Shown: positions 17,532 to 41,724 of the stretch, piece after piece
Position numbering within the stretch: the stretch's first letter is position 1
Layout: each line of letters starts with the position of its first letter
Assembly: GCA_039815145.1 (NCBI GenBank)
Contig: JBCBZW010000007.1
Span: 1,192-65,191 of the forward strand
Source: Pseudomonadota bacterium
Lineage (GTDB): Bacteria; Pseudomonadota; Gammaproteobacteria; Steroidobacterales; JBCBZW01
Length of the DNA: 64,000 nucleotides
Reading direction: 5' to 3'
Notes under the pieces: generated by a model
What the model was told of the DNA's origin: nothing
Databases searched by the model: none
What the model saw: only the letters and a program-made list of their open reading frames with translations
Position numbers and translations under genes: made by a program

Positions 17532-18104
17532 CTAGCGTGCGCCGTAGAGCGTATCCAGGGCTTCGCGGATGCGAGCTCCCCAGTAGGGCGCGCGTCGCGC
17601 GGCCTTCTGGCGGTTGTTGAGCGAGTCCCACGCGGGGTCCTCGGCCATGCGGGAGGTCACCTGGTAGAGGTTCAGCACGATGCGGCCGCTCTCATCCACC
17701 ACGAAGACGCCCGGCGTGCCCGACACGTTGTAGGACGCGGGCACGTCGCCGCCCTCGGGGAAGGCGATGAAGGAATAGCCTTGACGCTCCAGGTACTTCA
17801 GGGGGTCGCCGTCTTCGCGGTATGAGATGGCGAAGACGCGCAGGGGCTTCTCGCCCTGGTACTCCTCGAGCATGCTCTGCAGGTGCGGCATCAACGCCTT
17901 GCAGTAGGGACACCAGGTGGCCCAGAACAGCACGATGCTGGGGCCCTTCGGGTGTTCCTCGTGGAAGGCGTACTCCTGGCCGGTGGCGTCGGTCAGCCGC
18001 CAGTTCGGCGCATCGTTGGCGAAGGTGATCTGGGCACCGAGCAAGCCCACTAGCAGGGCGACGGTGAGCAGCAATGCGCGGGAGCGAGGGGCGATCGATG
18101 ACAT
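17532..18104 (-). CDS. TlpA/ResA-like periplasmic thiol:disulfide oxidoreductase (thioredoxin fold)
   Basis: ATG 18104 with AAGGACAAGGAAG upstream. Signal/anchor 'SRALLLTVALLVGLLGA'. Active site 'FWATWCPYCKALMP' (CxxC). Confidence 0.8.
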   Translation of the reverse strand: MSSIAPRSRALLLTVALLVGLLGAQITFANDAPNWRLTDATGQEYAFHEEHPKGPSIVLFWATWCPYCKALMPHLQSMLEEYQGEKPLRVFAISYREDGDPLKYLERQGYSFIAFPEGGDVPASYNVSGTPGVFVVDESGRIVLNLYQVTSRMAEDPAWDSLNNRQKAARRAPYWGARIREALDTLYGAR

Positions 18105-18210
18105 GGGCGCTTCCTTGTCCTTAAGCGGGGTCGGTGCTCTCGCCAATCGAGCGCACCCCATTGGTGACAGTGTCCGCGAGCCCGACGCCGGTTACAACGG
18201 TGGACGGCCG

Positions 18211-29003: not shown

Positions 29004-30001
29004 CGCTCCAACGCTCTCCTGGTGGTCTTCGGTAAGGCCGTGCGGTCGGCGACGGCGGAGAGCATCATTGCCTTACGCTCTCGTGAGGTGCCGATACGGC
29101 CGATGAACAGCGGTTGTTCGCCGGAGACGGCGGTGACGGTCTGATCGAATTCGACCTCCATCACGTCGCCGCTCTGCATGTCGATCATGTCGCGGAAGCT
29201 CGCCGGCACCTCGGCCAGGGACACCTGCACATCCAACTCCACGTCGAGCAGGGTTTCGCGGAGGGCTTCGCGCCACTCTTCAACGTGGTCGTCGGGACGG
29301 TACTCGGTGCCCGTGAGCCGCGCCTCGATGGGCTGCATCGTGGCGTGGGGAATGACGATGTTGATGGTGGCCTTCTGACTGGCGAATTCGACCTCGAAGC
29401 GCGAGGCGAGGAGCATCGTCGAGGAGGGCATCATCTCGAGGTAGCGAGCGTCGAACTCGAGGCTCTCCACGCTGACCTCGATGGGTTCCACTTCCTCCCA
29501 CGTCTTACTCAGGTCGGAGAGGATCAGCTCCTGACAGGTTTGCAGCAGCAGTCGCTCACTGCGCGTGAAGGCACGTTGCTGGGAGAGCACAGGTGGGCGA
29601 CAGGGGCCACCGAAGCGCGAGTCGACACCCAGGTAGAGGAAGGCCGTGTCCATCACCATCAGGGCCTTGCCCGGGAGGGGGGAAAGATCGAGCACGTGGA
29701 TCGCGCTCGGCACGCTCAGGCCTGAGGTGTAGTCGAGGTAGGACTCGCGGTAGAGCCCCGCGAAGCGCACCGCACCGAGGGCGGGGAACACGGACTTCAG
29801 CGACTCGGACAGGCGGGTCGCCAGGCGCTCGTTGATGCGCTCGAGCACCGGCCACTGGCCGGTCACGAGGTGGTCGTAGGCGGCGTAGTCGATGGGCACC
29901 ACCTGGCCGCGCGGACGCATACCCGTGTCGGTGGAGACGGAGCCGTCTTCGATACCCTCGAGCAGCGCTTCGGTCTCCTGCTCGGTGAGCAAGTCATTCA
30001 T
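29000..30001 (-). CDS. fliM: Flagellar motor switch protein FliM
   Basis: N-terminal CheY-P docking motif 'DLLTEQETEALL'. 333 aa. ATGA overlap with fliN. Confidence 0.92.
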   Translation of the reverse strand: MNDLLTEQETEALLEGIEDGSVSTDTGMRPRGQVVPIDYAAYDHLVTGQWPVLERINERLATRLSESLKSVFPALGAVRFAGLYRESYLDYTSGLSVPSAIHVLDLSPLPGKALMVMDTAFLYLGVDSRFGGPCRPPVLSQQRAFTRSERLLLQTCQELILSDLSKTWEEVEPIEVSVESLEFDARYLEMMPSSTMLLASRFEVEFASQKATINIVIPHATMQPIEARLTGTEYRPDDHVEEWREALRETLLDVELDVQVSLAEVPASFRDMIDMQSGDVMEVEFDQTVTAVSGEQPLFIGRIGTSRERKAMMLSAVADRTALPKTTRRALER

Positions 30002-30013
30002 GCGTCGACGGCC

Positions 30014-30511
30014 CTACTGCGCGACGAAGGAAGTGAAGTAGGCCTCTTCCACGGTCATACCGTCGACGTAGGGCTCCAGCACCGCTTGCACCTCCTCGAG
30101 CACCTTCATGCGCAGCATCTCCTTGGCGTCACGGGTGTTGACGTCGTCGCCGGCGTGGGTGGAGAACATCAGCAGCAGGTTGTTGCGGATCGCGGCCTTG
30201 TGCGTCTGCAAGGCGTCGATGACCTTCTGATCGCGGGCCATCAGTTCGATCGAGACCTGGAGAAAGTCGGCGTCGGCCCCCTCCAGGTTAGCGATAAGGG
30301 GCGGGTTCAGCGCGTGGTAGAGCGGTGGCGCGTCTACCACCTGCGCGGCGGCCCCATCGTCCGAAGGCATGCTGACCTTCGGCGGGAACACGATGGTGGT
30401 CACGATGTTGCTGACCGTGACGAGGGCGAAGATGCCCACCCCGGCGATCAACATGTCCATCATCTTGTTAGGGGGTTTCGGGGTATCTTCAGCGGCTTCT
30501 TCGTTTGCCAT
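30014..30511 (-). CDS. fliL: Flagellar basal-body-associated protein FliL
   Basis: ORF 30014..30523 (TTG). ATG 30511 with AGGA SD. Single TM 'MLIAGVGIFALVTVSNIV', then the FliL-type periplasmic domain. Confidence 0.85.
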   Translation of the reverse strand: MANEEAAEDTPKPPNKMMDMLIAGVGIFALVTVSNIVTTIVFPPKVSMPSDDGAAAQVVDAPPLYHALNPPLIANLEGADADFLQVSIELMARDQKVIDALQTHKAAIRNNLLLMFSTHAGDDVNTRDAKEMLRMKVLEEVQAVLEPYVDGMTVEEAYFTSFVAQ

Positions 30512-30553
30512 GGGTCCTGCCAAGGTTTGAGTGAATGCTCCGCTGCTGACACA

Positions 30554-30568
30554 GCAACATCCGTGCCA
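30554..30568 (-). promoter_or_regulatory. Sigma54 (-24/-12) promoter of the fliL operon
   Basis: The minus strand reads TGGCACGGATGTTGC (TGGCAC-N5-TTGC); the -12 element lies ~40 nt upstream of the fliL ATG. Confidence 0.6.
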
Positions 30569-30705
30569 CGCAGGTAATGCACGGCTTTTGGCAGGATTTC
30601 GGCGCTTGCGCCGTCAGGTGGTGGCGGCGCACTGGCGCATCGGTGTGACGCAGTTCACGCGGTGCCGGAAACCCGGCGCCTCGGGTGGCGTCGTCGTCAG
30701 GAAGC

Positions 30706-31092
30706 TCAGTCGCGGGGGGAGCTCAGGCGCAGCCGGATGGGGCCGCGGAAGCGGCCGGGGTCGACCACGCGCCCGCCTTGGAGAATCTCGAGTTCACCGC
30801 GTTGAGCGAGGCGCCTGGCCGCCTGGCGAACGGGCTCCATGTGCGCGCGCCAGGCGTCTTCGGCGTAGCGTTGGCGGGCCACCTCGCTCGGGCAGCAGCT
30901 CGCGCCCGCGCGGCGATTGCCCAGCAGCTCGAGGATGGCTTCCTCGAGCGACTCGGTCTCCCCGCCCGTGCCGCGGCCGCGACACGCCGCCGAGCAGTAG
31001 CGCACCTGCTCCCAGTCTCGCGCCCACTTACGCCGCCAGGAGAAGGGGCGACCGCAGGCGACGCAGATCTTGTCCGGCGGTGGCGCGGGCAT
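30706..31092 (-). CDS. DUF2256 zinc-ribbon + DUF3253 fusion protein (hypothetical)
   Basis: 'KICVACGRPFSWRRKWARDWEQVRYCSAACR' (C4 ribbon, recalled as DUF2256), followed by 'CCPSEVAR...WRAHMEPVRQAARRLAQRGELEILQGGRVVDP..FRGPIRLR' (recalled as DUF3253). Confidence 0.7.
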   Translation of the reverse strand: MPAPPPDKICVACGRPFSWRRKWARDWEQVRYCSAACRGRGTGGETESLEEAILELLGNRRAGASCCPSEVARQRYAEDAWRAHMEPVRQAARRLAQRGELEILQGGRVVDPGRFRGPIRLRLSSPRD

Positions 31093-31110
31093 AGGCGACG
31101 GACGGCTAGC

Positions 31111-31863
31111 TCAGGCGCTCGTCGACGAGGTGGGATGAGCGACCAGCATGTAGTTGATGATCAGCGAGTCGGTGAGGCTGAACTTGCGCGTGAGCGGGTT
31201 GACCCGCACGCCCTTGCGCTCGGTGACGGTGTAGCCGCTGTCCGTGAGCATGCCTTCGAGTTCGCGGGGCGTGGGGAACTTGCGCCAATCGTGGGTGCCA
31301 CGCGGTAGCCATCGCAGCACGTATTCGGCGCCCACGATGGCGCTGAGGAAGGAGATGGGATTGCGATTGATCGTTGATACGAACATCAGTCCATCGTCGC
31401 GGACGAGAGCGCAGCAGTGGGACATGAAGGCCGGCAGGTCGACCACGTGCTCGACCACCTCCATGTTCAGCACCACATCGTAGGGGGCCGCTGCGCGGGC
31501 CGTGAGCGCTTCCACCGAGCCGTGTTCGTAGCGCAGGTTGGCGGCGAGTTCGGGCGGTCGGTGACGCTCGGCGATTCGCACGTTGCGCTCCACCACGTCC
31601 ACCCCGTGGACCTCGGCGCCGAGGCGCGCCATGGCCTCGCTCAGCAGGCCGCCGCCACACCCGATGTCCAGCATGCGCACGCCCTTCAGCGGCGCTGCGC
31701 CCTCGGCGCGACCGCCCCGGTGTGCGCTCACCACGTCGCGGATGTAGTCCGTGCGCACGGTATTCAACTTATGCAGGGGCCAGAAGGGGCCGGTGGGGTC
31801 CCACCAGGTGTCGGCCAGCTGCTCGAACTTGGCCATCTCCCGCGGATCAGCGCTCGCTACCAT
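31111..31863 (-). CDS. ubiG: Ubiquinone biosynthesis O-methyltransferase
   Basis: 'FEQLADTWWDPTGPFWPLHKLNTVRTDYI', SAM motif 'VRMLDIGCGGGLLSEAMARLGAEVHGVD', 'VVLNMEVVEHV', 'GTHDWRKF'. Confidence 0.9.
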   Translation of the reverse strand: MVASADPREMAKFEQLADTWWDPTGPFWPLHKLNTVRTDYIRDVVSAHRGGRAEGAAPLKGVRMLDIGCGGGLLSEAMARLGAEVHGVDVVERNVRIAERHRPPELAANLRYEHGSVEALTARAAAPYDVVLNMEVVEHVVDLPAFMSHCCALVRDDGLMFVSTINRNPISFLSAIVGAEYVLRWLPRGTHDWRKFPTPRELEGMLTDSGYTVTERKGVRVNPLTRKFSLTDSLIINYMLVAHPTSSTSA

Positions 31864-31925
31864 CGCTCAGGTCTCCCGTTCGCGGCGAGGCAGACACAGC
31901 AGGGCTGCCGGCGCGCCGTCTGGCG

Positions 31926-31966
31926 GATAAAAAGAAGGCGCCGCGGCGTGGTCGCCGGGGCGCCTT
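31926..31966 (-). terminator. Rho-independent terminator (minus strand)
   Basis: Stem AAGGCGCC-G-CGGCG / CGCCG-GG-GGCGCCTT (31935-31966). On the minus strand it is followed by CTTTTTAT. Confidence 0.55.
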
Positions 31967-32143
31967 TAATGCTGTTACCGCCATAAAAAGCTATAACGCT
32001 AAGGAGTCACGACCTCGGCACAAGACCGGAAGTCGGAAAGGACGATACCTCGACAATAGCTAGACATCAACCAAAAAGTTTGCCGCTATCTGCGACAAAA
32101 CATGAACAGGCCTTAAGCGGTTTAGCTTCGCCAGTGCCGTCGC

Positions 32144-33088
32144 TCAGGGTTGTCCCAGTGCGAGCGAAACGGCGATCGCCGACCCGATGAGCAGACTGGA
32201 GACGAGGGCCGTCAACCGCAGGCGCAGGCCGAGGTAGTGCCCCGGCAGGCGTGCGCTGGCGCGCTCGAACGCGTGCCAGAGCAGAAAGCTCACGCCCAGC
32301 AGGGCCAGGCTGGCGGTGGCGCCGGTCTGCGCGTGGAGCATCAGCGCCGCCCAGCCGATCAGCGAGGGGATTACGCTCGCCACCAAACCGCGCGGCGCCG
32401 CCGGGTCGCGGCCGAGGGAATAGCCCCAATGGACGGCCCCCACGAAGCTGAAGATCACCGCCGCGTAAGCCACCAGGGCCAATCGGGCGAGTTCTTGTTG
32501 CGGGCCGAAGAAGCTGCCTCCGGCGCAGGCGAAGAAGGGGATCAAACCGGCATATCCGAGCAGGTCAGTGCGCCGCCGCAGGGCGCTGTCGGAAGCATCG
32601 ATGGCCGTCCCAGCGGGGGCTTGCGCAGGCGTCGCCAGCGCTTGGTCGAGGCTGCCCGCGGGGGCGGGCGTCGTCGGCGGCTCGTCGCCGTCTGCCGATG
32701 AGGTGTCGGGTGGGTTCGGTTCGGGCACCTCGGGGGTGGGGTCCGGCGATGCCGGTTCCTGCGTATTGTCATCGTCCACCGTCGCGGGCGTGCTGTCCTC
32801 CGGCGGCTCGGGTGCGTGGTCGCGCCGGTCCGCGATGTAGCGGGCCAGTTCCGGTTCGCCGCCGATGCAACGCTCGTCGATGAAGATCAGTGGCAGGGTG
32901 CCGTGTCCGCTGGACTGCTTCAGCTCCCGGTAGCGCTTGCGCTCCTCTTGGCTGGCCATCCCCACCACCTCCACCTCGAACGGCAGCTCGGCGCGGCGCA
33001 GGCGGGCCTCGACGGTTCGAATATCGGTGATGGCAGAGCGGTAGACCACCACCTTGGGAAGGGTGGGGAGGGGAGACGCTTCAGTCAT
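32144..33088 (-). CDS. Glutaredoxin-like (no CxxC) domain fused to a DUF3429 membrane domain
   Basis: ATG 33088. 'KVVVYRSAITDIRT...GTLPLIFIDERCIGGEPEL' is a Grx fold with the active-site Cys pair absent. A Pro/Glu/Asp/Thr linker follows, then 'LGYAGLIPFF...FSFVGAVHWG' (recalled as DUF3429). Confidence 0.7.
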   Translation of the reverse strand: MTEASPLPTLPKVVVYRSAITDIRTVEARLRRAELPFEVEVVGMASQEERKRYRELKQSSGHGTLPLIFIDERCIGGEPELARYIADRRDHAPEPPEDSTPATVDDDNTQEPASPDPTPEVPEPNPPDTSSADGDEPPTTPAPAGSLDQALATPAQAPAGTAIDASDSALRRRTDLLGYAGLIPFFACAGGSFFGPQQELARLALVAYAAVIFSFVGAVHWGYSLGRDPAAPRGLVASVIPSLIGWAALMLHAQTGATASLALLGVSFLLWHAFERASARLPGHYLGLRLRLTALVSSLLIGSAIAVSLALGQP

Positions 33089-33196
33089 AAAAACATGCTG
33101 CAAAACAGCGAAAACGCAGGACATCCAATGCCCTTGAAGCGTACGAGGCTATGTCGATAATGTCCACGTTCTAAGTTAGACGTTTGCGAGAAAGTT

Positions 33197-34264
33197 ATGA
33201 GTGACGGCTCACCCCCTTCGCCCCCTCACCACGAGCAGGATGACCCAGCGGCTGGGCACGACGAGGCGGCACCGAGCGGTGGTGAAGAGCGTCGTGGCTA
33301 CGGCATCGGCACCGTCTCACGGTTGACCGGTATCTCCACCCACACGCTCCGTGTTTGGGAGCGTCGCTACGGCGCGGTCGACGCGGAACGCTCCGACAGC
33401 GGTCGTCGTCTCTACTCGCGGCCGGACATCGAACGCCTCACCGTCATGAAGCACCTGGTGGACCGGGGCGAACCCATCGGCCACGTCGCCCGCCTCAGCC
33501 ACACGGAGCTGCAGGAGCGCCTCGCCGCCTACGAACAGCACGTGGCCAAGCGCGAGCAGCTCTCCAGCGCGCCCACGCGCACCGCCCTCATGGGCGAGAC
33601 CTTCCGCCTGATGGGCCTATCGGATCTGATGGGTTTGAACGTGGTGAGTCGGGAGGCCGACCTCGGTGCCTTCCGAGCCGATGTGAAGCGCCTGCGCCCC
33701 GAGGCGCTGGTGATCGAGCAGCCGACCATCGACCAGGACACGAAGGTACTGATCAGCGATCTGCGTCGCCTCTCCGGGGCCACTCGCGTGGTGCTGGTGT
33801 ACAACTTCGCGCGCACTAACGATTTGCAGGCCTTGAACGACGAGTGGACCGTGCTGATGCGGGCGCCGGTTACCGGTGCAGATCTCGCGCGCGCACTGCG
33901 CGATGTGGGGGGCGCGCCGTCGTCCCCGCGACCCGGTGCTCCGGCAGCGCCTGCTTCCCCGCATTACCCGGGCGAGCAGTCCGGCGAGATTCCGGCACGG
34001 CTCTACACGCGCGAGCAGCTCTCGCGCATGGCCACTCAGTCCACGACGGTGGAATGTGAGTGCCCTAAGCACCTGGTGGATCTGGTCGTCAGTCTGACGG
34101 CCTTCGAGTCCTACAGCGCGAGTTGCGAGAGCCGCAACCCCGCTGACGCCGCGCTTCATGCCTACCTGCATGAAACCACCGCACGTTCGCGGGAGATGAT
34201 CGAACAGGCCCTGCAGCGGGTGGTGATCGCCGAGGGCATCGACGTGGATGGCGACGCCTCCTAG
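33197..34264 (+). CDS. MerR-family regulator with atypical middle and Cys-containing C-terminal domains
   Basis: HTH 'YGIGTVSRLTGISTHTLRVWERRYGAVDAERSDSGRRLYSRPDIERL'. Then an alpha/beta-looking module, a Pro-rich linker and 'TTVECECPKHLVDLVVSLTAFESYSASCE'. Confidence 0.8.
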   Translation: MSDGSPPSPPHHEQDDPAAGHDEAAPSGGEERRGYGIGTVSRLTGISTHTLRVWERRYGAVDAERSDSGRRLYSRPDIERLTVMKHLVDRGEPIGHVARLSHTELQERLAAYEQHVAKREQLSSAPTRTALMGETFRLMGLSDLMGLNVVSREADLGAFRADVKRLRPEALVIEQPTIDQDTKVLISDLRRLSGATRVVLVYNFARTNDLQALNDEWTVLMRAPVTGADLARALRDVGGAPSSPRPGAPAAPASPHYPGEQSGEIPARLYTREQLSRMATQSTTVECECPKHLVDLVVSLTAFESYSASCESRNPADAALHAYLHETTARSREMIEQALQRVVIAEGIDVDGDAS

Positions 34265-34306
34265 GGGAGGATGTTGTTGTGGTTCGGGGCGCCGCTCGCG
34301 GGGGGC

Positions 34307-34393
34307 TCAGTAGGGCGTCGAGAACGTCGCGAAGATCGCGAGGACGCTGGCGCCGATCAGCCACAGGGTGCTTAGAATCTTGCCGCCTTGCAT
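34307..34393 (-). CDS. Candidate 28-aa hydrophobic small protein (not in ORF track)
   Basis: AGAAGGACCACACC-ATG; translation MQGGKILSTLWLIGASVLAIFATFSTPY*. One predicted TM helix. Lies 107 nt downstream of the fliK stop on the same strand. Confidence 0.35.
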   Translation of the reverse strand: MQGGKILSTLWLIGASVLAIFATFSTPY

Positions 34394-34500
34394 GGTGTGG
34401 TCCTTCTAGTTGTTAGGGGTGACCGGGCGCTAACAGCGCTGACATCCCTACAAGCGGCGACACCGCGCCCACTCCCTCACAAAAGTTCACTTTCCCGGCC

Positions 34501-35823
34501 TCAGGCGTAGAGGTCCAACTGACCTATGCTCGTGCGCCGAGTCGACACGCTGTCTACGGACAGGTCAGCGGTCTGAACGGCCGCGCCGTCCGCGCCTGTG
34601 ATCGGCGCTGAACGTTGGGCGCTAGCGCCATCATCGTGTTGAGCAGCCTGCTCGCCGCCACTGTGCTGACCGACGTTCGCATCCGCCAGCTGCAGCCCAC
34701 TCTGCGCCATCATTTCCCGCAGCCGTGGCAGGGCCTGTTCCACCGCTTCGCGGGTGGCGGCGTGTTGAGCGCCGAAGGTCGCACTCACCTCATCACCGCG
34801 CACGTTGAGCGTGATCTCGAGCGGTCCGAGTTCCGCGGGGTTCAAGCGCAGCTCAGCGCGGCCGATGCGAGCATCGGTGAGCCATTGGAGTCGTCCGCCC
34901 AACTCCTGCTGCCAGGCTTGGCTGCCAAGGGGCTGGGAGAGCTCGAAGCTCGTGGGGTTGCTGGAGGCGGTAGCGGTAGGCTCGACGGTGAACACGGTGG
35001 TGGGTGCGAGCGCTGCATTGATGGCGTTGGCGCCGGTCGCCGGTGCGGTCACCGTGGTGGCGCTGCCGCCTTGAGCACCCAGGGCCGGGGTGATGCCAAA
35101 GCCCTCCGGGCCGGTCCCCGAAAGGAGGCTCGATGAGAAGGCTGACCGTTCACCGAGCATCGGCCGTAGGCCATCGAAAAGCGCAGGTGCGCGCTCACCC
35201 TGACGCGCCGCCAGCGCCCCCGGGTCGCTCGAGCGTTGATCCCAGGCGCTGGTGCGACGGCCACCGTTCAAGACGTCGCTGCGCATGTTGCCAGGGGCTG
35301 CGTCGCCGCGAAGCTCACCCGCGCTGCGCAGCACCGCGCTACCGGTGCCAGGTGCCGCTGCGGCAGGTGCCGCCGGCGTGGCGATCCCCTGCACCGTGCC
35401 CACCACTGGGGACGGCGCGGTGGAGCGGTTAGCATCGCCGGGTACCGGCGAGGGTGCCGTCGCCGGCGTGGCTAGCGAATCCGTCTGCAATGCAACGTCA
35501 TTGGGGAGGATGTTTGCCGCCACGGCCGGCAAGCCTTGGCCGCCTTGCCCTATCGTTTCTTCGGACGCGAGCAGGGGCTCGCTCCGGGAGGTGGTGGCCT
35601 CGTCGGCGTCGTAGGCGCTTGATTCCTGACCCTGACCCGATGGCGGTTGTTCGCCCGTCCGGTCGCCTTCACTCGGCGTTTGTTGGCGTTCCTGCGCGAC
35701 CAGGTCACGGAACGAGGTGTTCTCGCCGGTGTCTGCCTCGGCCAGGGCCGGGTTGTCGGAGGTTTGCGGGCCGGAGAGTTTCGCCGGTGCGGCATTGAGC
35801 GGAGCGAGGATCGATGGAGTCAC
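34501..35823 (-). CDS. fliK: Flagellar hook-length control protein FliK
   Basis: Low-complexity Pro/Ala/Ser/Thr N-terminal region. C-terminal Flg_hook domain 'GRAELRLNPAELGPLEITLNVRGDEVSATFGAQHAATREAVEQALPRLREMM'. GTG start. Confidence 0.85.
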   Translation of the reverse strand: MTPSILAPLNAAPAKLSGPQTSDNPALAEADTGENTSFRDLVAQERQQTPSEGDRTGEQPPSGQGQESSAYDADEATTSRSEPLLASEETIGQGGQGLPAVAANILPNDVALQTDSLATPATAPSPVPGDANRSTAPSPVVGTVQGIATPAAPAAAAPGTGSAVLRSAGELRGDAAPGNMRSDVLNGGRRTSAWDQRSSDPGALAARQGERAPALFDGLRPMLGERSAFSSSLLSGTGPEGFGITPALGAQGGSATTVTAPATGANAINAALAPTTVFTVEPTATASSNPTSFELSQPLGSQAWQQELGGRLQWLTDARIGRAELRLNPAELGPLEITLNVRGDEVSATFGAQHAATREAVEQALPRLREMMAQSGLQLADANVGQHSGGEQAAQHDDGASAQRSAPITGADGAAVQTADLSVDSVSTRRTSIGQLDLYA

Positions 35824-35860: not shown

Positions 35861-35875
35861 GCAAGTGCCGTGCCA
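35861..35875 (-). promoter_or_regulatory. Sigma54 (-24/-12) promoter upstream of fliK
   Basis: The minus strand reads TGGCACGGCACTTGC. It lies 3 nt after the fliJ stop codon and ~38 nt before the fliK start. Confidence 0.6.
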
Positions 35876-41709: not shown

Positions 41710-41724
41710 GCAAGCTATGTGCCA
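41710..41724 (-). promoter_or_regulatory. Sigma54 (-24/-12) promoter of fliE(-fliFGHIJ)
   Basis: The minus strand reads TGGCACATAGCTTGC. The -24 box lies in the last fleR codons, and the fleR TAG stop (41715-41717) sits between the two boxes. Confidence 0.6.

Follow-up and report, generated by a model that had tools for sequence, protein, structure and literature searches.

Five open reading frames (ORFs) that encode no flagellar proteins lie between fliK and the sigma-54-driven fliL operon, at positions 30706–34393 of the DNA analyzed here, a stretch of 64,000 nucleotides (the window) from contig JBCBZW010000007.1 of a gammaproteobacterium of the Steroidobacterales (assembly GCA_039815145.1). 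One of the five encodes a MerR-family regulator. We consider it reasonably likely that this block is a small, self-regulated stress regulon under the control of a CarH/LitR-like repressor, and that it operates independently of the flagellum. The unit probably serves in protection from light or oxidative stress rather than in motility. CarH/LitR regulons are already known; what appears to be new is a regulon of this type whose regulator carries an undescribed, putative Cys/His sensor domain. The initial annotation of this DNA had listed the five ORFs with correct coordinates and domain assignments. The genes and control regions on which our interpretation depends are the following.

33197–34264, plus strand: MerR-family regulator of 355 amino acids, with a MerR_1 helix-turn-helix (HTH) domain and ∼255 further residues without a Pfam match
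33134–33182, both strands: overlapping divergent promoters with operator half-sites (promoter scan and sequence reading)
32144–33088, minus strand (longest ORF 32144–33124): degenerate glutaredoxin-fold domain joined to a DUF3429 four-helix membrane domain (Pfam)
32042–32070, minus strand: predicted ubiG-side promoter with a CarH-type operator, in the intergenic region between ubiG and the DUF3429 gene (sequence reading)
31928–32035, minus strand: candidate small RNA (sRNA) or 5′ leader of ∼108 nucleotides, downstream of the 32042–32070 promoter, ends predicted
31111–31863, minus strand: ubiG, encoding a ubiquinone O-methyltransferase of 250 amino acids (TIGR01983 equivalog)
30706–31092, minus strand: fusion of a DUF2256 zinc ribbon with DUF3253, 128 amino acids (Pfam)

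The regulator and its C-terminal domain

The DNA-binding domain of the regulator is of the CarH/LitR/CarA subtype. Its HTH region (residues 35–100) is the only part of the protein with a Pfam match (MerR_1), and the best NCBIfam match is CarH (TransRegCarH), accompanied by weak matches to ZntR, CueR, and CadR. A profile built from 20 family sequences and compared with the Protein Data Bank (PDB) gave CarH (5C8D, 3e-15), LitR (3WHP), and CarA (2JML), down to 4e-14, whereas the next-best MerR structure scored 5e-10. Their E-values are five orders of magnitude better than those of the metal sensors. Likewise, a Foldseek search with the AlphaFold model (pLDDT 80) placed full-length Thermus CarH in all of the first ten ranks.

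No B12-binding module is recognizable in the protein. The B12-binding domain PF02310 gave no match to the regulator even at E ≤ 5, and the B12_binding_2 helix bundle PF02607 gave none. In the 20-sequence alignment, residues 125–240 contain no invariant or near-invariant His, and the E/DxHxxG ligand motif is missing. The Wx9EH motif is also absent; the sole conserved Trp is W54 in the HTH, and no Trp occurs outside that domain. Instead, the HTH is followed by a long helix (residues 102–123), a flavodoxin/receiver-like alpha/beta domain (128–235), a disordered linker, and a three-helix C-terminal domain (262–346). Pfam searches with the middle and C-terminal parts returned only chance matches at E ≤ 5, and the initial description of a MerR-like protein with unusual extra domains is borne out for the ∼255 residues beyond the HTH. 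The middle domain has a five-stranded flavodoxin-like fold, with TM scores of 0.56–0.68 to the receiver domains of DesR and KdpE. When the family was compared by hhalign with Escherichia coli CheY, the middle domain was not aligned, and so the term receiver-like describes the fold and not the sequence.

The C-terminal domain is the most conserved part of the regulator. It contains the motif CxCPxH...FExYSxxC...DxxLHxxLH, within which three cysteines and three histidines are invariant (C287, C289, H292, C310, H321, and H325). Modeled alone, the domain forms a three-helix unit with a pLDDT of 89.5, and no fold match to it was found in the PDB. A word-indexed search with this domain alone gave only four fragments, and an exhaustive search was needed. 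The latter, covering 1.84 billion representatives, recovered the domain in 1,197 clusters, of which 918 reached E ≤ 1e-10. In the 150 best matches listed, the domain is always C-terminal; full-length proteins have ∼315–350 amino acids, and the shorter ones look like fragments. Named members come from Chromatiales, Woeseiaceae, Verrucomicrobiales, Myxococcota, and Betaproteobacteria. Within the CarH/LitR group, these comparisons place the regulator in a branch that is large and previously undescribed.

A bolder proposal, which we offer only tentatively, is that the protein represents a new class of CarH/LitR-type sensors that work independently of B12, and that it is the first member to be recognized. 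The Cys3His3 domain might bind a metal or an Fe-S cluster, or act as a thiol switch, and might thereby detect light-generated oxidants or redox changes directly. Proteins of this class could control a photolyase-linked protective regulon, which in the lineage of the window might include a dedicated small RNA. The class as proposed comprises ∼1,200 clusters at 50% identity, from Gammaproteobacteria, Verrucomicrobia, Myxococcota, and Betaproteobacteria.

Predicted operators and a conserved RNA

A common sequence word precedes many genes of this family. Among the upstream regions of 81 members, TGTCTA/TAGACA occurs in 52, compared with 4.5 expected, which is far above any other word. Usually the word forms two or three direct repeats that recur every 11 bp, as in TGTCTAaaagaTGTCTAtataaTGTCTA, and a variant in Verrucomicrobia is inverted (TTGTCTA-N11-TAGACAA). 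A count over 1.37 Mb of loci found 54 tandem 11-bp repeats. More than half (28 of 54) are located within 300 nucleotides upstream of the regulator, and ∼20 lie just past its stop codon, where they overlap the TTGACA −35 box of the next gene. The operator consensus of CarH is nAnnTnnACAn, an 11-bp unit that is contacted by one DNA-binding domain and that occurs in tandem, overlapping the promoter (PMC8156234). The family repeats fit this consensus when they are read on the other strand.

Two promoter regions of the block have CarH-type, TGTCTA-like repeats across their −35 and −10 elements, and these repeats are predicted to be operators. The ubiG-side promoter consists of a −35 element TTGATG (32065–32070) and a −10 element TATCGT (32042–32047) separated by a 17-bp spacer. 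Two repeats in phase, TGTCTAgctat and TGTCGAggtat, occupy 32050–32066 on the minus strand, between these elements. The pattern TGTCNA-N5-TGTCNA has this single match in 64 kb, where 0.06 would be expected. All bases of the promoter and operator are invariant in three related loci, L001 (assembly GCA_039193195.1, regulator 91% identical), L086, and L003.

The second region separates the regulator gene from the divergent DUF3429 gene. A promoter scan located the regulator promoter, with a −35 element TTGAAG (33134–33139), a −10 element GATAAT (33156–33161), and a 16-bp spacer. The predicted DUF3429 promoter, read from the sequence, has a −35 element TGGACA (33161–33166), a −10 element TACGCT (33138–33143), and a 17-bp spacer. 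Half-sites TGTCGA (33152–33157) and TGTCCA (33161–33166) form the site TGTCGAtaaTGTCCA, and an inverted TAGACG follows at 33177–33182. The site at 33152–33166 overlaps the regulator −10 element and the predicted DUF3429 −35 element, and the pattern TGTCKA-N3-TGTCYA is unique in the window (0.01 expected). A 1-nucleotide indel in L001 between two candidate ATG codons breaks the frame upstream of 33088. The glutaredoxin-like/DUF3429 protein is therefore taken to start at 33088 (314 amino acids), and this start agrees with the divergent region of 33089–33196 that was originally delimited. The divergent region is 92% identical to that of L001, and the same 9-bp arrangement is present in L003. Both sites of the window are situated in noncoding DNA that is 92–100% conserved, whereas synonymous sites are only 55–70% identical; third-codon identity to L001 (0.55–0.71) served as the yardstick for conserved noncoding DNA.

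The spacer lengths also bear on the mode of regulation. Because spacers of 16–17 bp were found, promoter occlusion is favored over classical MerR activation. A different possibility is that the protein is a classical metal-sensing activator or a SoxR-like Fe-S activator, for which a metal ion or a redox-cycling drug would be the cue to remodel a promoter with a long spacer. The MerR-type HTH and the weak matches to ZntR, CueR, and CadR would be consistent with this view, and the six invariant Cys/His residues hint at metal binding. However, such promoters call for spacers of 19–20 bp, and the repeats observed are direct and CarH-like instead of forming a dyad within the spacer. The Cys and His residues are located in a separate domain ∼170 residues past the dimerization helix, not in a metal-binding loop, and the neighboring genes are not metal exporters. 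Together with the rank of the metal sensors in the profile comparison, these features make an activator of this kind very improbable.

Under the interpretation that we prefer, in which the regulator is a CarH/LitR-like repressor, an oligomer of the protein would occupy the repeats in the resting state and block RNA polymerase. A light-derived or oxidative signal, whose nature is suggested by the gene neighbors and the invariant residues, would alter a metal or thiol center in the Cys/His domain and so free the repressor from the DNA. Release would raise the levels of DUF3429 and UbiG, which would contribute membrane and quinone functions with a protective role, together with those of the nucleic-acid-binding DUF2256/DUF3253 protein and the RNA described below. 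The position between fliK and fliL would simply be an operon boundary that tolerates insertions.

The candidate RNA downstream of the ubiG-side promoter is composed of stem-loop 1, a single-stranded invariant segment (UGACUCCUUAGC), stem-loop 2, and a GC-rich terminator with a U-tract (∼31929–31966). It is conserved in L001, L086, and L003, with perfect blocks of 45 and 27 nucleotides. Its minimum free energy is −47.5 kcal/mol (z = −4.84), and a consensus fold of the four sequences includes some compensatory changes in stem-loop 1, although few overall. An Rfam search of 30000–35000 at E ≤ 1 returned only a weak match to BSnc120, confined to the terminator, and thus no known family. No conserved ORF is present in the ∼108 nucleotides, and no targets of the conserved segment were found at ribosome-binding sites in the window. 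In L003, the same promoter and RNA directly precede the DUF2256/DUF3253 gene. It is equally possible that the RNA is a regulated sRNA or a cis-acting leader.

Gene linkage and flagellar position

The genes of the block accompany the regulator in other genomes. In L003 and L004, which are two independent assemblies with a regulator 67% identical to that of the window, the regulator, the divergent DUF3429 gene, an SDR gene, the RNA, and the DUF2256/DUF3253 gene occur together with no flagellar gene nearby. The SDR gene of L003 takes the position of ubiG in the window. In L005 and L006 (50% identical), an operator directly precedes a ubiG–MerR gene pair, and DUF2256 and a photolyase-like gene are near. 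More distant are five Woeseiaceae-type loci (L032, L035, L039, L041, and L045), whose regulators are 37–39% identical. On one side these carry a photolyase relative of the DPRP/FeS-BCP type (5/5) with UbiG, EamA, and DUF4149 (4/5), and on the other side HiPIP and a FAD_binding_7 protein (4/5), with operators on either side of the regulator. Further recurrent genes of these loci encode DUF3429, glutathione peroxidase, and an amine-oxidase-like protein, along with DUF2256 (4/5) and, in most, Nei.

A photolyase-family gene lies within 7 kb of the regulator in 15 of 83 distinct family loci. Such a gene is present in 8 of the 11 loci with UbiG, in 5 of the 8 with DUF3429, and in 7 of the 10 with DUF2256, and most of the loci in these groups that have no photolyase belong to the window's own clade. 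The locus points to ubiquinone synthesis as one component of a photolyase-type protective response. Four regulator-adjacent UbiG proteins were scored (L005, L041, L051, and L082), and all pass the equivalog cutoff with 259–269 bits. It had been proposed earlier that DUF2256, DUF3253, DUF3429, and MerR/LitR-type regulators co-occur in photolyase-associated regulons. This holds around the regulator, as the five Woeseiaceae-type loci illustrate, but less clearly for DUF2256–DUF3253 fusions elsewhere. Of five independent contexts of the fusion chosen without regard to the regulator, three have other repair genes (HhH-GPD glycosylase, MsrAB, and Smr) nearby, and the wider link of the fusion to photolyases is modest.

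A number of observations weigh against a light- or stress-responsive regulon. No photolyase, peroxidase, or photoreceptor gene occurs in the 64-kb window; the lack of a photolyase had already been noted in the initial annotation. No stress-gene neighbor was counted in 51 of the 83 family loci, and a FAD_binding_7 neighbor accompanies the DUF2256–DUF3253 fusion in one of the five regulator-independent contexts. The operators also depart from the CarH pattern. Conservation at the ubiG-side promoter extends to two repeats in the window clade but not to a third, compared with three to four repeats in CarH, and the divergent site has 9-bp instead of 11-bp spacing, with one half-site reading TAGACG. 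The RNA terminator, which ends ∼60 nucleotides before the ubiG start, places a strong terminator between the promoter and this gene. Likeness of the middle domain of the regulator to receiver domains is at the level of the fold, and its sequence support is below threshold.

The remaining caveat concerns the term redox in the earlier designation of a regulatory/redox block. The regulatory part agrees with the CarH-like regulator, but the redox part is not borne out. The glutaredoxin-like domain (PF00462) scores 18.2 bits, under the Pfam threshold of 22.9, and matches only profile positions 15–60. Its active site reads S-A-I-T in place of CxxC, with the TLP...GG glutathione-site motifs retained. 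The low score and the missing CxxC motif therefore point to a glutaredoxin fold without the usual redox chemistry. In L003, the orthologous gene encodes DUF3429 alone (162 amino acids).

Some of these facts could be accommodated if the block were a neutral patchwork, that is, unrelated genes gathered at a permissive boundary, with the regulator controlling at most itself and DUF3429 and with no function shared among them. The ubiG gene scores as a genuine UbiG and could be a housekeeping copy, L003 has an SDR gene in its place, the contexts of the DUF2256–DUF3253 fusion elsewhere are varied, and a terminator stands between the operator-bearing promoter and ubiG. However, that promoter is conserved in four loci and leads directly into the DUF2256/DUF3253 gene in L003, and an operator lies upstream of the ubiG–MerR pair in L005 and L006. 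The recurrence of UbiG, DUF3429, and DUF2256 around regulators that are only 37–39% identical is likewise difficult to reconcile with chance assembly. We regard a neutral patchwork as unlikely.

Two candidates were set aside in the survey of neighbors. An ABC ATPase appeared as the commonest neighbor (21 loci), but this cluster is an artifact that pooled unrelated transporters differing in length and position. Proteins of ∼470 amino acids without Pfam matches that lie beside DUF2256–DUF3253 fusions (L088 and L090) are unrelated to each other and to a cluster of 469-amino-acid proteins found near the regulator.

A family of ∼405–420 amino acids was also observed, with FAD_binding_7 near its N terminus, an unannotated C-terminal half, and no DNA_photolyase N-domain (L041:11736–12995 and L088:5699–6916). 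It recurs downstream of the regulator in 14 loci, and in the actinobacterium Euzebya it is encoded directly upstream of a DUF2256–DUF3253 fusion.

Comparison of fliK–fliL junctions indicates how the block came to be surrounded by flagellar genes. It occupies the same junction in L001, in L085 (assembly GCA_039818405.1, regulator 79% identical), and in L086 (FliM 84% identical); a metagenome scan with FliM gave only one further relative. On either outer side (window 14–18 kb and 47–56 kb), L003 and the window are collinear, and in L003 the module is directly bracketed by Redoxin (window 17532–18161) and CDO_I-Wzy_C-GDH-E2-E1beta (window 46944 onward). Two segments of the window are missing from L003: DUF2802-fliA-fleN-flhF-flhA-flhB-fliR...fliL at 18.2–30.5 kb, and the 28-amino-acid ORF-fliK...fliE-flrC-flrB-fleQ-like-HDOD at 34.3–46.8 kb. 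The simplest history would be that the module was first present at the fliK/fliL boundary, after which both flagellar halves were lost or relocated in the lineage of L003 and the module was retained. A two-step gain of the flagellar halves is a possible alternative. L006 was tried as an outgroup, but it shares just ubiG and the regulator gene with the window and thus does not polarize gain or loss of the flagellar genes.

Because L003 keeps the module without the flagellar halves, the function of the module appears to be independent of the flagellum. This comparative result, together with the CarH-type operators, supports the earlier suggestion of a stress-responsive module embedded in a motility locus. 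The opposite view is that the module is coupled to motility, so that the regulator or transcriptional read-through ties fliL–fliR, fliK, or both to light or redox conditions, which would account for its place at the fliK–fliL junction. Its arrangement is stable in four related contigs, a distant family member in L055 is also located between fliK and fliL, and a scan found no intrinsic terminator between the DUF2256/DUF3253 gene and fliL. Nevertheless, the module of L003 and L004 has the same chromosomal surroundings even though both flagellar halves are absent, fliL and fliK each have a perfect sigma-54 promoter of their own, and no operator repeat is found near any flagellar promoter in the window. 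In addition, of the 83 distinct family loci analyzed, no more than three are flagellar, namely the window, L001, and L055, and the conserved segment of the RNA has no complementarity to flagellar ribosome-binding sites in the window. Coupling to motility is quite unlikely given this distribution.

The family member of L055 (L055:7814–14514), in another gammaproteobacterial metagenome-assembled genome, is 39% identical to the regulator of the window. Its companions, a sulfotransferase gene and unannotated genes, are unrelated to those of the window, and the relative orientation is opposite. Its nearest relative, L071 (64%), has no flagellar genes in the 16.9 kb examined. L055 looks like a second, independent placement at the fliK–fliL junction.

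Related systems and other features of the locus

The CarH/LitR group provides the model for B12-based light sensing and is used in optogenetic tools. Our comparison with LitR proteins covered class I and class II. Class I comprises the AdoB12 photoreceptor repressors (Thermus CarH, Bacillus LitR, and Myxococcus CarH/CarA), which have the most similar DNA-binding domains. Shared features are the tandem 11-bp direct repeats that fit nAnnTnnACAn and overlap the −35 and −10 elements and, at the level of the family, a link to light-protective genes. In class I, a Rossmann-type domain binds B12 with the E/DxHxxG histidine as ligand, a four-helix bundle with the Wx9EH motif caps AdoB12, and light abolishes oligomerization and DNA binding. 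In contrast to class I, the protein described here has no B12 domain, no E/DxHxxG motif, and no Wx9EH bundle. In their place are two domains, the first receiver/flavodoxin-like and the second a Cys3His3 three-helix unit without a relative in the PDB or Pfam. Its predicted targets are ubiG, DUF3429, and DUF2256/DUF3253, not carotenoid genes.

Class II LitR proteins of Pseudomonas (PplR1-3 and PmlR2) are B12-independent effectors of short LOV photoreceptors (PMC9758184). Like the regulator of the window they make no use of B12, and they are LitR-type repressors of photolyase-type regulons (PMC9758184). Their box, TGTACA-N12-GGTATA (PMC9758184), resembles the TGTCTA-N11-GGTATC of the window. However, class II proteins keep the B12_binding_2 bundle and an adjacent LOV protein, whereas the block encodes no match to the bundle and no LOV/PAS gene. 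The same study describes no Cys3His3 domain in its LitR classes, and it reports that several LitR classes without B12 binding have no known sensing mechanism (PMC9758184). The present locus is a compact example of a large unannotated branch, with a regulator, six invariant Cys/His residues, two predicted operators, and a short list of targets. As such it makes a large regulator family experimentally approachable, and it places three widespread domains without an assigned function in a functional setting for the first time. A lesson for annotation is that a non-flagellar unit within a flagellar cluster need not be related to motility.

ChrR, the regulatory partner in the sigmaE–ChrR systems of Rhodobacter and Vibrio, has a zinc site. 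By description, these systems and VCA0056–phr of Vibrio cholerae (PMC5241685) also have dedicated regulators beside photolyase and membrane-protective genes, and the blue-light response of V. cholerae needs a MerR-like protein (PMC5241685). Sensing is based on Cys/His residues, as is proposed here, but the regulator architecture is different, and no sigma/anti-sigma pair is present here. SoxR, a [2Fe-2S] protein, is also a MerR-family member that senses redox through cysteines. It carries a CX2CXCX5C loop right after the dimerization helix and activates a promoter with a 19-bp spacer, whereas the system described here has spacers of 16–17 bp, direct repeats, and a separate Cys/His domain.

The other features of the block and its flanks are as follows.

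30014–30523, minus strand: fliL, left flank (PF03748 FliL, 71.7 bits)
30554–30568, minus strand: sigma-54 promoter of the fliL operon, TGGCACGGATGTTGC (TGGCAC-N5-TTGC), with no mismatch and identical in L001
32079–32099, minus strand: terminator-like hairpin after the DUF3429 gene, as first annotated
34257–34270, plus strand: hairpin at the convergent ends of the regulator gene and the 28-amino-acid ORF
34307–34393, minus strand: hydrophobic ORF of 28 amino acids without a family, with a GAAGGA ribosome-binding site
34501–35823, minus strand: fliK, right flank (PF02120)

The order of genes on the minus strand is fliQ, fliP, fliO, fliN, fliM, fliL, DUF2256/DUF3253, ubiG, and glutaredoxin-like/DUF3429. 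Beyond these lie the regulator gene on the plus strand and then the 28-amino-acid ORF, fliK, fliJ, fliI, and fliH, again on the minus strand. The true start of fliL is likely the ATG at 30511, which gives 165 amino acids and matches the 165 amino acids called in L001. UbiG scores 267.1 bits against TIGR01983 (NCBIfam cutoff 102.95) over model positions 1–228 of 228, and it matches the structure of E. coli UbiG (4KDC) at E = 3.6e-51. DUF3429 (PF11911) scores 90.2 bits against a gathering threshold of 39.1. The only studied protein with this domain is an inner-membrane protein of mitochondria whose loss raises the level of reactive oxygen species (PMC4767927). In the fusion protein, DUF2256 (PF10013, 66.6 bits, gathering threshold 25) and DUF3253 (PF11625, 100 bits, threshold 22.1) both pass, the DUF3253 part matches PDB entry 2NS0 (E = 2.7e-19), and at least 1,265 homologs of the fusion exist. 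Identity is ∼60–67% even to proteins of Myxococcota and Actinobacteria, which is unusually high conservation for a family without an assigned function.

The block does not have the character of a genomic island or mobile element. No tRNA was found in the 64-kb window, and no integrase, transposase, or other mobile-element gene is present among its ORFs. The GC content is 0.60–0.74 in the block and 0.60–0.72 in the flanks, with dips only at two intergenic stretches. On these points the first reading of the sequence was accurate. A 20-nucleotide direct repeat (30455–30474 and 34400–34419, 80% identical) was considered as a target-site duplication and judged to be due to chance; one copy is inside the fliL coding sequence.

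The 28-amino-acid ORF evolves, by its pattern of substitutions, as a protein under purifying selection: identity to L001 at the three codon positions is 0.97/0.93/0.55. Its product is 96% identical in L001 and 63% identical in L085, and the ORF is absent from L003. Perfect sigma-54 boxes are also located at 35861–35875, upstream of fliK, and at 41710–41724. The ORF follows fliK, a gene with a sigma-54 box of its own, and the two may therefore form a single transcription unit. Thus, the ORF is real, as first proposed, but its assignment to the block may not hold.

A further conserved stretch, ∼60 nucleotides long, is located at 30620–30680, upstream of the fliL sigma-54 promoter. It is ∼97% identical to the corresponding sequence of L001 and contains the imperfect palindrome GTGTGACGCAGTTCACGC. 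This stretch may be a site for an enhancer-binding protein.

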